IMG/VR virus record: IMGVR_UViG_3300005325_000002
Location: 1 to 40,289 of that record
Length of the DNA stretch: 40,289 nucleotides
Source: a virus
Lineage: Duplodnaviria; Caudoviricetes
Reading direction: 5' to 3' (one strand)
A program made the position numbers and the translations under genes. Below are positions 5,136 to 40,255 of this stretch, in pieces. Below the pieces are notes generated by a model, which was given only the letters and a program-made list of their open reading frames with translations, ran no database searches and had not been told where the DNA came from. Positions within the stretch are counted from its first letter, which is position 1. Every line of letters begins with the position of its first letter.

Positions 5136-5504
5136 ATGGATGAACTTCAACAAGACGTTAAAAAGAAAATAGAGATGATTGCTCGTGTATGCCATGAAGT
5201 GAATAGAGCTTATTGCCAAGCTCTAGGGGATAATACCCAAGTTCCGTGGAAAGACGCTCCTGCATGGCAGCGAGAATCAGCTCGTATGGGTGTAGACTTA
5301 CACCTCATGGGAGATTTCGGTCCAGAAGCTTCACACATTTTATGGATGAAGCAAAAACTTGACACTGGTTGGACTTGGGGGCCAGAAAAGAACGCGGAGG
5401 CTAAAGAACATCCCTGCATTGTCCCTTTCGATCAACTCCCGGTTGAGCAACAGGCCAAGGATTATATCTTTCGTGCAGTTGTTCATGCACTAAAATATTA
5501 TTAA
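5136..5504 (+). CDS. RyR (ryanodine receptor repeat) domain protein
   Basis: HxxWMxxKxxxGWxWGxxKxxxxKxHPCIVPFDQLPxxQQxKD signature; AAGGAGGT RBS. Confidence 0.8.
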   Translation: MDELQQDVKKKIEMIARVCHEVNRAYCQALGDNTQVPWKDAPAWQRESARMGVDLHLMGDFGPEASHILWMKQKLDTGWTWGPEKNAEAKEHPCIVPFDQLPVEQQAKDYIFRAVVHALKYY

Positions 5505-7316: not shown

Positions 7317-7920
7317 TCCGACTGGAAGAAATGTTTTCGATCCTGGAGCCAAGCTCGATGGCGGAAAAGTTCCCGCCGGTATGCTTATTGGATTTTCTCG
7401 TGCACTTGAAGCCATCAGTCGGGTTTTCGCCTTTGGAGCTAGTAAAGGTTACTGTCGAGGAGGATGGAAAGAGGTACCTGATGGAATTCTCCGTTACAGT
7501 GATGCAGCTTGGCGACACCGACTAGCTTCCGGTAATGACCCTGAATCTGGACTTCCACACTCTTGGCACGAAGCTTGGAATGTACTCGCTGTCTTAGAAT
7601 TAGAACTTGAGGAGGCACAACTTAATGACACACTTTGTAATGCCGTCCGGCCCGTGTCCGGCGAAGATAATGATCGTGGGGGAGAATCCGGGAGCGGAGG
7701 AAGTCCGTCTCAACATGCCCTTCGTCGGGACTGCCGGACGGGAGATGGATCGGATGCTGGCCGAGGCTGGGATTGCCCGCTCGTCGTGCTTTGTAACAAA
7801 TGTGGCCAGGGTTATCCCGCCGGGGGGAAATGCGACTGCGTGGATCGCGGAAAAGAAGAAAGATCGGACGCCGGCGCACAAGGAATTTCAAGGGAAGCTG
7901 ATCCTTCAACCCCTGCTTGA
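7309..7920 (+). CDS. DUF5664 (dATP/dGTP diphosphohydrolase N-terminal-like) protein with a ~98-codon extension overlapping the polymerase gene
   Basis: GAKLDGGK, FGAxKGY...W, RYSDAAWRH, DPESGLPH..H.AWN pattern in the first ~100 aa. Confidence 0.7.
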   Translation: MNDPTGRNVFDPGAKLDGGKVPAGMLIGFSRALEAISRVFAFGASKGYCRGGWKEVPDGILRYSDAAWRHRLASGNDPESGLPHSWHEAWNVLAVLELELEEAQLNDTLCNAVRPVSGEDNDRGGESGSGGSPSQHALRRDCRTGDGSDAGRGWDCPLVVLCNKCGQGYPAGGKCDCVDRGKEERSDAGAQGISREADPSTPA

Positions 7921-10000
7921 AGGAATCCAGCTCCTTACACAAGAAATCAATCTCTGTAAGCCGAACATTATCATTGCTTTCGGAAATGTGAGTTTGTGGG
8001 CGCTGACCGGAAAGTGGGGTGTGATGAAATGGCGGGGGAGCTTGCTTGAAGTCTCCTTGCCTCATTCCGTAGGCAGGCCGGTGAAAGTTATTCCAGTCGT
8101 CCATCCCGGAACCATCTTACGGCGGTGGGACTGGCGGCCTGTGGCGGTTCATGACTTGCGGAGGTGCCTTAAAGAAAGTAAGTCAGAAAAGATAACGTGT
8201 GTGGATTACAATTTTTTAATCCGCGTAAGTTTCCCTCAAGCTCTCGCAGTTCTTAATGAGTTACTCCTCCAAGTGGAAAAGGAACCAACATGGCTCGCCT
8301 GTGATATTGAAACCCGCGCCGGTCACATCGCCTGCATCGGTTTCGCATGGAGTAAGACTTCCGCCATCTGCATCCCATTCATGTGCGTCGAGCGGCCGGA
8401 AGGGTACTTCACACCTAATGAAGAGTTCGCGGTCATCACCCTCATCCGCAAGCTTTTAGTCCACCCTAACGCTAAGATCATCGGCCAGAACTTCCACTAT
8501 GACGCGCAGTACATCCACCGCCACTGGATGATCGTTCCAAACTGCGCTCAAGACACCATGATTTCCCAACATTCCTGCTTCTCCAACATGCAGAAGTCAT
8601 TGGACTTCCTTTCCAGTATGTATTGCGAGAATCACTTATATTGGAAAGATGATGGGAAAGAGTGGACGGATGATATGAACGAAGACCAGCTTTGGAACTA
8701 TAACTGCATGGACTGCGTACGCACGTTCGAGGTCGCGGAAGTCCTCCGACGGAATGTAGTTCAAATGGGACTTCAGAATGTTGATGGATTTCAGCAATCC
8801 CTATTCCGTCCCGTCCTTGAAACCATGATAATAGGGCTTCGAGTTGATAAAGCTCGCCGCGCCACCTTCGCCATGGAACTCATGGATGAGATTGCCAAGC
8901 GCGAACAATTCTTCATCGACATACTCGGACATCCTTTAAATCCTCGTTCAAACACCCAAATGCAGAAGTTATTCTACGACGATCTCGGTCAACGCCCAAT
9001 TAAAAACCACAAGACCGGCGCCGTTTCCTGTGACGATGAATCTCTACGCAAGGTAATGGAACGTGAACCAATCCTCAAGCCACTCATCAACCGAATCACT
9101 GAATATCGTTCGCTTAACGTCTTCCTCTCTACTTTTGTTTCTGCTCCTCTCGACGTGGACGACCGCATCCGCTGCTCCTTCGCAGTCACGGGCGCAGAAA
9201 CATATCGCTTCGCCTCCCGCAAAAACGCTTTCGGTTCGGGCCTCAACCTCCAAAACATCCCAAAGGGCGGTGATGAAGGTTCGGGCCTCGAACTCCCGAA
9301 CGTCCGGACACTCTTCATCCCGGACCCCGGCCACACCTTCTTCGATATTGACCTTTCTTCTGCCGACCTTCGAATCGTGGTTTGGGAGTCCGACGAACCA
9401 GAAATGAAAGCCATGCTCCGTGAAGGCCTTGACCCCTACACCGAAGTTGCAAAGGAGTTCTATCATGACCCATCCATCAACAAAAAGGATCCTCGCCGTC
9501 AGCTCTTTAAGTCTTTTTGTCACGGAACAAACTACCTTGGTACCGCCAAAGGACTTGCAGGAAGGCTTGGACTATCTGTATATGAATCAGAAAAGACTCA
9601 GACGTGGTATTTCGGTCGTTTTCCGAAGATCAAAGAATGGCAAAATAATCTCAAGGAGTCTGTCATCAAGCGTCGAATGGTTGAAAATGTCTTCGGATAT
9701 CGTTGCTATTTTTTCGACCGAATCGAAGGGACAGTTTTTAATCAAGCTGCTGCGTGGATTCCCCAATCAACAGTTGCTTGTATCATCAATCGCGGATACC
9801 GGAATATCTTTGATAATCTTAAGGAAGTCCAAGTACTCCTGCAGGTGCATGACAGCTTGGCTGGACAATTTCAAACCCATCTTGGAGATTGGGCCACGCG
9901 GAGAATAGTGGAAGAGTGTTCGATTGAACTTCCTTACCGCGATCCGCTTATCGTCCCGGTCGGGATTAAGACAAGTACAAAGTCATGGGGGGACTGTTAA
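7625..10000 (+). CDS. polA: Family A DNA polymerase with N-terminal uracil-DNA glycosylase-like domain and 3'-5' exonuclease
   Basis: GENPG..EE, PFVG.AG, HP (family-4 UDG-like); DIET, GQNFHYD, YNCMD (exonuclease); NLQNIP, DLSSADLR, R...KSFCHGTNY, QVHDS (polymerase); GGAGG RBS before ATG 7625. Confidence 0.93.
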   Translation: MTHFVMPSGPCPAKIMIVGENPGAEEVRLNMPFVGTAGREMDRMLAEAGIARSSCFVTNVARVIPPGGNATAWIAEKKKDRTPAHKEFQGKLILQPLLEGIQLLTQEINLCKPNIIIAFGNVSLWALTGKWGVMKWRGSLLEVSLPHSVGRPVKVIPVVHPGTILRRWDWRPVAVHDLRRCLKESKSEKITCVDYNFLIRVSFPQALAVLNELLLQVEKEPTWLACDIETRAGHIACIGFAWSKTSAICIPFMCVERPEGYFTPNEEFAVITLIRKLLVHPNAKIIGQNFHYDAQYIHRHWMIVPNCAQDTMISQHSCFSNMQKSLDFLSSMYCENHLYWKDDGKEWTDDMNEDQLWNYNCMDCVRTFEVAEVLRRNVVQMGLQNVDGFQQSLFRPVLETMIIGLRVDKARRATFAMELMDEIAKREQFFIDILGHPLNPRSNTQMQKLFYDDLGQRPIKNHKTGAVSCDDESLRKVMEREPILKPLINRITEYRSLNVFLSTFVSAPLDVDDRIRCSFAVTGAETYRFASRKNAFGSGLNLQNIPKGGDEGSGLELPNVRTLFIPDPGHTFFDIDLSSADLRIVVWESDEPEMKAMLREGLDPYTEVAKEFYHDPSINKKDPRRQLFKSFCHGTNYLGTAKGLAGRLGLSVYESEKTQTWYFGRFPKIKEWQNNLKESVIKRRMVENVFGYRCYFFDRIEGTVFNQAAAWIPQSTVACIINRGYRNIFDNLKEVQVLLQVHDSLAGQFQTHLGDWATRRIVEECSIELPYRDPLIVPVGIKTSTKSWGDC
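8200..8225. promoter_or_regulatory. 26-bp palindromic site, copy 2, inside polA (TGTGGATTAC-aatttt-TTAATCCGCG)
   Basis: Matches the motif; lies in the linker between the UDG and exonuclease domains. Confidence 0.6.
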
Positions 10001-34655: not shown

Positions 34656-35162
34656 ATGGAAACCGGAAACAAACGCGACATTACAACAACGGTAGAGGCT
34701 GGCGGTCGATGGATGAACATCAATTTCGCCAATGGGAAAATTATCGGGTTTGACAAGGCTACATTCCCACCGGAAATCATCGAAATGGCAATCATGCACG
34801 GCCTGAAACAAAAACTAGTTGATGCAGCCGCTATTAGTCGTGACCCGGAAACCGGACGGACGGCGGATATTGACGACAAATACGAGGCTGTGAAAACCGT
34901 ATTCGATCGTTTGATGGCTGGTGAATGGAATAAACCCCGTGAGAGTGGCGAACCACGAGGCGGGTTGCTGTTTGCGGCCCTTGTCCGGTTATATCCGACC
35001 AAAACCCCGGAGAGTTTGCGGGAATGGTTGGCCGCGAAAACCAAAAAGGAACAGGCGCAATTGCGATCGAACCCCAAAATTGCCCGAATTATTGACGAAA
35101 TCAGGGCGGAAAACACCTCGGATGTGGATACAGATGCGTTGTTGGAGGAGTTGAACGACTAA
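34656..35162 (+). CDS. Hypothetical protein, paralog A (similar to 37992-38519)
   Basis: AGGAGG RBS; own promoter and terminator; shared FANG/HG..QK/GEW/LR.NP.I/VDTDALL.EL motifs. Confidence 0.85.
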   Translation: METGNKRDITTTVEAGGRWMNINFANGKIIGFDKATFPPEIIEMAIMHGLKQKLVDAAAISRDPETGRTADIDDKYEAVKTVFDRLMAGEWNKPRESGEPRGGLLFAALVRLYPTKTPESLREWLAAKTKKEQAQLRSNPKIARIIDEIRAENTSDVDTDALLEELND

Positions 35163-37811: not shown

Positions 37812-37877
37812 AAAATGGCGAAATGGTGGACGGAAAATAATAATTCGAAAGTTTCACGCGGAAACAAGAAAAAACTA

Positions 37878-37906
37878 TTGCAAGACCCATCCATTCCGGA
37901 TACGGT
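37878..37906 (+). promoter_or_regulatory. Promoter TTGCAA-17-TACGGT
   Basis: Similar to the promoter at 4525 (TTGCAAG...GGATA...TTAA); implies start 37992 for the downstream gene. Confidence 0.5.
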
Positions 37907-37991
37907 TAATCATCAAACGGACACGACACCCGACGGCGGGTCAGGCTTGTCAAGTCCAACAATCCCGCAAGAAAACAAACTGGAGCAAACA

Positions 37992-38519
37992 ATGAGTGAG
38001 AATCAAGTACAAATGGAAGATGGAAGCGTAGAAATTTTCGGCGGAAAGAAAAAGATGGTGAAGAATACCACCATCCAAGAAAACGGTGACATTACCACCA
38101 AACTTTCTTTCGCGAACGGACGTATTATCACCTTCACCATGCCCGAAGCGATGAAAGACAGGTTCGCAGCCCACGGCGCGGATCAGAAGTTTGGTGATGT
38201 TATTGCCGGTGTAGCGGATGTTGAAGATTGCGTTCTCGCGGTTGAAGAGCTTGCCGAACGTCTTGCCAATGGTGAATGGAGCCAGAAACGCGAAGGCGGC
38301 GGAATGGGCGGAACGAGTGTCCTTCTGCGCGCCCTTGTCGAGCATACCGGAAAGGATGTCGAAGCTATCAAGGCATACCTGAAAGGCAAGACTCAGGCGG
38401 AGAAGGTCGCCCTCCGCCAGAATCCGCGAATCAAGCCCATCGTCGATCGCCTGGAAGCTGAGAAGGCATCCAAATCCACCGGTGTGGATACTGATGCGCT
38501 GCTGGATGAGCTTGCATAA
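37992..38519 (+). CDS. Hypothetical protein, paralog B (similar to 34656-35162)
   Basis: GGAG RBS before ATG 37992 (ORF is open from 37815); ends VDTDALLDELA. Confidence 0.82.
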   Translation: MSENQVQMEDGSVEIFGGKKKMVKNTTIQENGDITTKLSFANGRIITFTMPEAMKDRFAAHGADQKFGDVIAGVADVEDCVLAVEELAERLANGEWSQKREGGGMGGTSVLLRALVEHTGKDVEAIKAYLKGKTQAEKVALRQNPRIKPIVDRLEAEKASKSTGVDTDALLDELA

Positions 38520-38605: not shown

Positions 38606-38644
38606 GCTTGTGGAGGAAGGTGGTTCACATTCTTGGAGGGTATT

Positions 38645-38869
38645 ATGTTATCAAGAAAAGAACTGATAGGAGTTAGAGCACTTATAGAAAATGCAATACA
38701 AGGAAAACATGGAATTATCTATACACTATCAAAAGATAGACAGAAAGATTTCTATAGAGAAATCACACAAACCTTAGAAAAACTTCATATTCACTTTAAA
38801 GCAAAAAATTATAAGATTGAACTTGAGAATAAAGGTTTGATTCAAATACACAAAACGTGCGCGGATTAA
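38645..38869 (+). CDS. Hypothetical AT-rich protein
   Basis: GGAGGG RBS before ATG 38645; stop codon is part of palindrome copy 8. Confidence 0.6.
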   Translation: MLSRKELIGVRALIENAIQGKHGIIYTLSKDRQKDFYREITQTLEKLHIHFKAKNYKIELENKGLIQIHKTCAD

Positions 38870-39427: not shown

Positions 39428-39616
39428 ATGCGAACAAGAAACGAAAGGAAAAACGATCCACGAACACATCTTCGAACTACTCATCATCCTGCAAGAGGAG
39501 TGTGTGGATACACTCACAAAGGCGCCGGATGGGGACTGACTGTCGAAAGTTTGACTAACGTAACTTGCTGTCGATGTAGGCAGTGTTCATTGAAAAAACT
39601 TGGAGGAGATAAGTAA
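39428..39616 (+). CDS. Hypothetical His/Cys-rich protein
   Basis: ATG just after the previous stop; TAATG coupling to the next gene; H...C...CCRC. Confidence 0.6.
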   Translation: MRTRNERKNDPRTHLRTTHHPARGVCGYTHKGAGWGLTVESLTNVTCCRCRQCSLKKLGGDK

Positions 39617-39801
39617 TGCCCAGACCAAAGAAAGCAACACCTTCCATCCGGAAGAATATCTGCCTTCCCGAACCGCTCGTCAACCGAATCGACTTGCTCC
39701 TATATTCCGAGCTGGAAGATCGCGTCCCCTTCGCCGCCTGGCAAGGGTTCTTGATCGAGGCGATGGAGGAGAAACTGAAACGAATAGAGGAAAAGAAATG
39801 A
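39616..39801 (+). CDS. Ribbon-helix-helix-like DNA-binding protein
   Basis: MPRPKK, alternating strand RKNICLP, then two helices; GGAGG RBS. Confidence 0.6.
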   Translation: MPRPKKATPSIRKNICLPEPLVNRIDLLLYSELEDRVPFAAWQGFLIEAMEEKLKRIEEKK

Positions 39802-40100
39802 AAGATAAATTTATTAATATGGATTTCTCTGAAATAGAGAAGCGTGTGTTATCCATGCAAGCTTTAATAAACATCGACCCTTACAAACATAAAGCTGGTA
39901 CTATGTTTAATGTTCCTTATAATGAAGTTACGCCAGCACAAAGACTGATTGCAAAGCAGGAAGTTTATCGACAGTGTTATACCCCTCAAGATGGGCCTAG
40001 TTATGAAGATGGGCCTTGGGCAAAAGGTTGGTTGCAGAGATCAACACCGAAGAAAGAGTTACTTCTCCCTCACCCTGAACATAATGGAGCAATCAAATGA
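39798..40100 (+). CDS. 100-aa protein homologous to the family A DNA polymerase motif A plus fingers/motif B region (mini-PolA)
   Basis: DFSEIEKRVL; DPY...A..MFNVPYNEVT..QR..AK...Y...Y; ATGA coupling, GAGG RBS. Confidence 0.7.
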   Translation: MKDKFINMDFSEIEKRVLSMQALINIDPYKHKAGTMFNVPYNEVTPAQRLIAKQEVYRQCYTPQDGPSYEDGPWAKGWLQRSTPKKELLLPHPEHNGAIK

Positions 40101-40255
40101 GCAAGAATTATAGTAGTTTAGCATCTATACCTTTTATTATTTCCTCTTACTTTCGGCCTACCTTTAAACTTTTCCAAGGTAATTTTAGACCAATCCCTCA
40201 AGCTTTAAACCAACGAAAACTTCGTAAAGCTCAACGACAAGGGAGGATTAAGTGA
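40097..40255 (+). CDS. 52-aa basic hypothetical protein spanning the assembly junction
   Basis: GGAG RBS; ATGA overlap upstream; GTGA overlap with the helicase start. Confidence 0.55.
   Translation: MSKNYSSLASIPFIISSYFRPTFKLFQGNFRPIPQALNQRKLRKAQRQGRIK

Follow-up and report, generated by a model that had tools for sequence, protein, structure and literature searches.

The 100-aa protein encoded directly 5' of the helicase gene of this phage is supported by its sequence as a module derived from PolA, with relics of motif A and of the fingers helices N and O. It belongs to a widespread family of more than 100 short homologues that is real and under selection and that has no characterised member. 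We tentatively favour the reading, itself somewhat doubtful, that the protein is a decoy for host proteins recognising the nucleotide-binding face of PolA; what is shown comprises the anatomy of the protein, its family, the accessory nature of its locus, the weak selection seen in two subfamilies other than its own and co-occurrence with full PolA.

The window, meaning the whole 40,289-nt stretch of DNA that was analysed, is a complete circular phage genome with a 123-nt terminal overlap, and it occurs in groundwater metagenome runs. Structural genes lie on the minus strand, while the plus strand carries helicase, exonuclease, Sak4, methyltransferase, UDG-PolA and primase. The mini gene sits among small genes without assigned function, and the helicase start (GTG, 40252) comes after the following 52-aa gene, across the circular junction. 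The unbroken plus-strand frame, the ribosome-binding site and the ATGA coupling to both neighbours described in an earlier note on this DNA all agree with the sequence (Table 1); the final codons of the tail contain both the GGAG (40086-40089) and the ATGA of the next gene, which was likely acquired together with the mini gene. Contigs from all three runs, two of them possibly the source of this DNA, span the gene with zero differences. Promoter matches in the sequence were no better than chance (7 found, 6.1 expected). The upstream 61-aa gene is kept in many relatives and by eye resembles a small ribbon-helix-helix regulator; a second allele of its region, seen in one run, shows 13 differences and rejoins just 5' of the mini gene.

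Table 1. Features of the mini-PolA locus and the phage's own polymerase
Feature	Position	Strand	Description	Basis
Mini-PolA ORF	39798..40100	+	100 aa, P0001	Translation, PF00476 match, contig coverage
Ribosome-binding site GAGGA	39787..39791	+	6 nt 5' of ATG	Sequence
Motif A relic, residues 9-18	39822..39851	+	D9 = D705 metal ligand, E14 = E710 steric gate	p=0.001
Shortened linker	39852..39875	+	D705-to-D732 spacing 18; helix M region lost	
Fingers helices N and O, residues 27-61	39876..39980	+		Family-profile alignment to Klenow
Non-PolA tail	39981..40100	+		Low pLDDT
52-aa gene, no assigned function	40097..40255	+	Coupled to mini gene; GC 0.35	
Upstream 61-aa gene	39616..39801	+	ATGA overlap with mini-gene ATG	
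Phage's own complete UDG-exonuclease-PolA	7607..10000	+	Asp gate, His762	

The profile PF00476 matches residues 4-61 of the mini protein over positions 153-219 of 381 (E=0.0011), at 18.5 bits, which lies below its curated cut-off of 34.3 bits, and as an enzyme the mini protein is not a PF00476 member. PHROG 6982, 38792 and 17 likewise match it. A profile built from the family itself matches Klenow at E=9.7e-12. That profile sets the register D27=D732, R49=R754, K53=K758, Y57=F762 and Y61=Y766, which bears out the R, K(+4), Y(+8), Y(+12) spacing read by the earlier note as motif B (R-x3-K-x3-(F/Y/L)-x3-Y) on helix O. The motif A likeness it had proposed also stands: DFSEIEKRVL, with the catalytic Asp and Glu gate in place, outscores 1000 of 1000 shuffles on a PSSM of full-length polymerases. 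The mini protein resembles Klenow 705-766 (PF00476; PDB 1d9d, 1kfd) in the fold and the sequence register of its helices N and O, and keeps D705, E710, D732, R754, K758, an aromatic residue at 762 and Y766; it differs in having Tyr29 at the position of His734, in missing the glycines at 763 and 767, in an unrelated tail, and in a shortened link from motif A to helix N, where some 9 residues are gone. D705 and D732 are 18 residues apart here and 27 in 61 of the 67 polymerases (of 75 supplied) in which both anchors were found. Residues 62-100 are poorly ordered and have no PolA likeness. Single-sequence searches with the mini protein were weak: one returned only itself, another had no match among PDB sequences, and NCBIfam and PADLOC gave no match.

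Motif C, palm sheet, thumb and exonuclease are absent, as the earlier note had stated: the HMM match spans about 65 of more than 700 positions, with no other piece nearby. Split PolAs and an intron-broken polA do occur among the matches, and the mini protein might on that account be one piece of a split or interrupted polymerase that assembles with other subunits. An HMM from 75 full polymerases matched only two things genome-wide, the real polymerase and the mini ORF, and the six frames of the complete circular genome hold no PolA remnant beyond these; moreover, the internal deletion and the missing O1 helix are a poor fit for such a subunit, so that this idea is effectively refuted and hardly credible. 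Several phages with split polymerases (L022, L032, L037, L051 and others) encode C-terminal PolA halves of about 277-310 aa that start just before motif A.

AlphaFold predicts helices at residues 10-21 (in the motif A segment), 28-37 and 46-61, with a pLDDT of 72.6 and a pTM of 0.45; a second monomer model, helped by 31 polymerase segments in its alignment, reached a pTM of 0.55. Helices N and O overlay those of Taq and Bst with an rmsd of 0.5-1.0 A over 30-38 columns (best Foldseek rows, all with E>0.1). The Foldseek check proposed in the earlier note thus came out in two parts: the top rows are indeed PolAs and viral mini proteins, but nothing in PDB or BFVD reaches E<=0.001, and the VIA Z is at most 5.0. 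In both models the motif A helix is off its PolA position and the Glu-Tyr-Tyr sugar pocket is not rebuilt; as modelled, then, the helix pair is rebuilt and the full nucleotide pocket is not. BFVD look-alikes include proteins of Pseudomonas phage PMBT3 (120 aa), Acinetobacter phage Aci02-2 (55 aa) and Maribacter phage Colly_1 (100 aa), the last encoded next to a 990-aa polymerase.

The mini gene is not a recent duplicate of the phage's own polymerase, as the earlier note had also concluded, since in that enzyme Asp replaces the Glu710 gate and position 762 is His, and since it comes only 56th when 75 polymerases are ranked by their similarity to the mini protein; BLAST between the two gives no motif-level match. 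The earlier note had added that the mini protein keeps the canonical Glu gate and Tyr762 that the phage's own polymerase lacks; the Glu/Tyr versus Asp/His difference holds, with the refinement that Klenow has Phe at 762. The UDG-PolA gene, through which 38 related loci were found, lies directly 3' of a dATP/dGTP diphosphohydrolase-domain gene and a ParB-methyltransferase, and these neighbours hint at altered nucleotide use.

A phmmer search of 1.84 billion representatives gave 8 further matches. Seven are stand-alone proteins, 66-104 aa long; the eighth, P0010, was discarded as a repeat protein without relation to the family. With a profile of 18 sequences, 109 of 748 candidates matched, a redundant set in which one subfamily of 89-105 aa dominates (94 of 122 sequences in a single cluster). 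Among cultured phages, stand-alone copies occur in Ralstonia phage RP13 (ORF9, BCG50027), Pectobacterium phage PPWS2 (ORF5, YP_009816166), CX5 and Friunavirus (a 59-aa protein; ANW09790, QOV07759), while fused versions are found in phiKMV/LUZ19 gp12 (YP_001671954), KarBoss 110 and Pipo gp10. Like PHROG 38792 and 6982, the mini gene is a short ORF in which helices N and O stand without the remainder of a polymerase, and these relatives show the same module amid small accessory genes; it differs from them in linker, motif A and tail. Databases label the relatives "hypothetical", "DNA polymerase" or "DNA-binding protein", the PolA similarity appearing in one GenBank note. A search of mostly open-access literature found no description of a PolA-fingertip family, and none appears in the accessible parts of PMC10201439 (a PolA classification), PMC12265669, PMC7824862, PMC5638911, PMC10914365 and 10.1101/2025.06.06.658234. 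At strict thresholds P0030 and P0110 had no phage record, and the sole match in a plasmid search was a full polymerase. Also set aside were L089-L091 (chance matches to the tail) and L001-L005 with 62 of 69 pattern matches (long or contig-cut polymerases); L085 and L086 are one genome.

The arrangement of the module varies. Motif A and the helices are 17-25 residues apart in the mini gene's clade and about 48 in the large subfamily, where motif A reads N-x4-E, with D705 replaced by Asn, in 76 of 78 relics. In phiKMV gp12 the order is reversed, motif A (p=0.001) lying C-terminal to the N/O helices; LUZ19 gp12 (L008:3013-3822) and L118-L123 likewise have the helices first and motif A some 35 residues on. 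The allele L121 has an additional motif-B-like stretch, and the C-terminus of phiKMV gp12 is a hydrophobic segment that is likely membrane-associated. In a tree of 35 columns the mini gene groups with 8 other mini proteins, with no full polymerase inside (support 96/89); those 8 were originally found through their likeness to it. Across the tree the mini proteins require 5 changes, but a single origin is not rejected (p-AU 0.23), so that one origin or several are possible from the sequences.

Several features of the family would suit a nucleotide sponge, in which the protein, probably as an oligomer, would use the pre-insertion site to hold a triphosphate-bearing nucleotide (such as a dITP-type immune signal, (p)ppNpp or a polymerase-poisoning analogue) away from its target. 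The stand-alone homologues mostly stop within 12 residues of Tyr766 (102 of 118), and Gly767 is present in 17 of 122 mini proteins versus 40 of 42 distinct full-length modules. Among 86 sequences of one set, 84 have R754 and 85 have K758, as against 62 for the adjacent R755, though the searches and the anchor pattern (which placed 122 of 126 sequences and itself demands some conserved residues) select for the same residues, for which reason Arg/Lys at 763 was excluded as evidence. The D-x4-E of motif A is intact in 9 of 9 members of the mini gene's clade. Tyr714 of Bst polymerase is presumably the equivalent of Tyr766. In the available text of PMC6231770 the incoming dNTP binds opposite this Tyr714 in the pre-insertion state, and in that of PMC7102940 Arg733, Lys737, Tyr741 and His713 of mycobacterial Pol1, which correspond to the residues kept, grip the dNTP triphosphate. 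Known sponges are small, often below 100 aa (PMC12265669, accessible part), which is close to the size seen here. As a class they are homo-oligomers whose pockets, deep and positively charged, lie where protomers meet, and by binding an immune signal tightly they inhibit the defence. The short accessory phage proteins Tad1, Tad2, Acb2, Acb4, Sequestin and Lockin share with the mini protein basic phosphate-binding residues, but no sequence or fold match to them was seen, and the mini protein would derive from a polymerase site.

A sponge is nevertheless unlikely. The motif A helix is misplaced in both models, the one aided by polymerase segments included. Tyr takes the place of His734, the charge is near neutral (14 K+R, 12 D+E) and in the Friunavirus versions motif A is missing and R754 has become Gln. 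The pair D732-R754 doubles as a structural salt bridge (PMC7102940, in the part available), and normal NTP and dNTP pools would be expected to compete. The sponge for dNTPs or chain terminators that the earlier note had offered is further weakened, on the models, because the sugar pocket is not rebuilt and because the dNTPs that the protein could store in stoichiometric amounts would be very few beside those of genome replication. As to ddhNTPs, these bear a 2'-OH, which a Glu gate would exclude.

Selection on the module can be seen in other subfamilies, the mini gene itself being compared with P0003 at the protein level only. Among 9 Friunavirus alleles, drawn from 33 matching records, codon variants number 17 synonymous to 20 non-synonymous, for a pN/pS of 0.37 (p=0.003-0.015 versus neutral); in 7 alleles of gp12 it is 0.30 for the module (19 and 19 variants, p=0.0004-0.002) and 0.55 for the remainder. 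In all these sets the variants counted are not independent events. A Pectobacterium pair gave 0.43, which by itself is not significant (p=0.16-0.24). Purifying selection in two other subfamilies is thus real but weak, and the dN/dS comparison suggested in the earlier note is borne out in these two and not in the pair. The mini protein and P0003 are identical at 23 of 35 positions in the helices, 6 of 29 in residues 62-90 and 8 of 10 in residues 91-100.

These figures bear on whether the gene is a near-neutral remnant, polA pieces being repeatedly captured in accessory regions and kept open mainly by translational coupling. The Friunavirus ratio far exceeds that of the gene upstream (0.047; Fisher p=5e-7), presence is patchy, truncated homologues occur, few as they are, and several origins are possible. 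Against this stand the synonymous excess in both subfamilies (17/37 and 19/38 variants), the fixed end past Tyr766, the better preservation of module than tail and the supported clade of nine short proteins without a full polymerase; we hold a remnant to be very unlikely. The homologues have a defined C-terminal end, and, with pN/pS below 1 in two subfamilies, they are not the random decaying fragments that the earlier note had named as counter-evidence.

Judged from sequence, the mini gene is a mobile accessory, low-GC insert, given its GC of 0.39 (0.485 genome-wide), its GC3 of 0.31 (0.55-0.63 in replication genes) and its absence from all 19 relatives (9 near-complete) in a whole-record search whose positive control was found 5/5. 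It was likewise in none of the 38 loci found via the phage's own polymerase, the 12 that cover the pre-helicase slot having other small genes there. From the gene numbering we take the homologue in phage PE3 to be gp12. PE3 without gp6-gp12 had the burst size and host range of wild type on the strains tested, according to the accessible part of PMC7835345.

A stable helix-loop-helix might also have been reused in some other way, for instance to bind the ends of DNA, or else a protein of host or phage, early in infection. This agrees with the annotation of phiKMV gp12 and the Friunavirus homologues as "DNA-binding protein", with the fusion of the module to unrelated domains (the hydrophobic C-terminal segment of LUZ19 gp12, KarBoss 110, L055, Pipo gp10), with the frequency of Arg/Lys at 763 (partly built into the searches) and with the hydrophobic core and cap being the best-kept residues. 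The label is apparently a similarity-based annotation, a mere scaffold needs neither an exposed K758 nor motif A, and the protein is not strongly basic; such reuse appears decidedly unlikely.

Carriers of the mini gene tend to encode PolA. All 6 complete carrier genomes, like the present one, also encode PolA at full length, as a gene of its own and a long way from the mini gene; among all carrier records 8 of 10 have a separate long PolA, the other two being 38% and 24% complete. PolB was found in none of 5 carriers. The control was 36 records of at least 37 kb, from 65, with another accessory gene of the phage, 28 of them searchable; PolA was present in 9 of its 21 complete phages. The difference is significant for complete genomes (Fisher p=0.017; p=0.03 if the two Autographiviridae count as one) and for all records (8/10 versus 9/28, p=0.012), in a small sample with one imperfect control and with 3 carriers that had initially come to light through BLAST against cultured phages. 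PolA occurs in more than 25% of dsDNA phages (PMC6302109, as far as accessible). The co-occurrence could come from origin in, or exchange among, PolA-bearing phages. The control gene (5136-5504) encodes a 122-aa RyR-domain protein common to 65 diverse viral loci.

The decoy reading is preferred because carriers encode their own PolA, because the motifs are kept in free spacing and order, because binding residues are lost in whole subfamilies, and because a shallow two-helix site would be a poor competitor with normal nucleotide pools. By sequence the kept residues fit a nucleotide binder and a mimic of PolA's most conserved surface equally, but having only the most conserved active-site motifs, freely linked, suits motif display better than a rigid pocket, and that surface is what sensors reading the fold would be expected to see. 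Avs sensors read active-site residues. The decoy would be made early, to judge from its pre-helicase place and coupled translation; its helices N and O, folded as in a polymerase, would present Arg754, Lys758, Tyr762 and Tyr766, the tether of the motif A helix probably being loose, and a host sensor (for example an Avs19-type receptor) or inhibitor would bind this surface and stay inactive. The real PolA, here the phage's own UDG-PolA, would then be neither sensed nor blocked.

The host systems that such a decoy would target are Avs19 (PMC12803255) and Borvo, which has a polymerase trigger (10.1101/2025.06.06.658234); these are host sensors, whereas the mini protein is a phage product, and no decoy of either was found in the accessible parts of these two reports. 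In the same part of PMC12803255, Avs19 senses family A polymerases of phages whether or not the catalytic Asp is present, its activation requires the whole core polymerase domain, and EcAvs19 ignores E. coli Pol I. Given the need for the core domain, a 55-residue piece may not bind Avs19. The match of several homologues to bacterial Pol I models also counts against the decoy reading, as does the unlikeness of the mini protein to the phage's own polymerase, which a decoy should resemble. None of the genes near the mini gene could be recognised as a known anti-defence gene. Inhibition of host Pol I partners, another proposal of the earlier note, has nothing in the analysis that speaks for it. 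It is possible, but rather unlikely, that phages recycle active-site motifs of essential enzymes as small dead decoys that jam bacterial pattern-recognition receptors; the PolA-fingertip family would then be the first case in which an anti-defence family directed at polymerase sensors such as Avs19 derives from the protein that these sense.

If the protein is a decoy or a sponge, it would represent a class of phage counter-defence built from a piece of the very enzyme that bacteria detect, and phiKMV gp12, which has long been annotated as a putative DNA-binding protein, would gain a function. Should it be neither, relatives are still mislabelled "DNA polymerase" in databases. The cultured carriers (phiKMV-like phages, Friunavirus, PPWS2, RP13), together with the PolA sensor Avs19, make the idea directly testable.

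Elsewhere in the genome, the low-GC small ORFs 38633-38869 (0.30) and 40097-40255 have no family match and are likely recent acquisitions, the former with terminator-like hairpins on its flanks. The products of the unknown genes 34656-35162 (168 aa) and 37815-38519 (234 aa, matching PHROG 28928) have C-terminal sequences that are similar by eye, and the two genes are possibly early-region paralogues.
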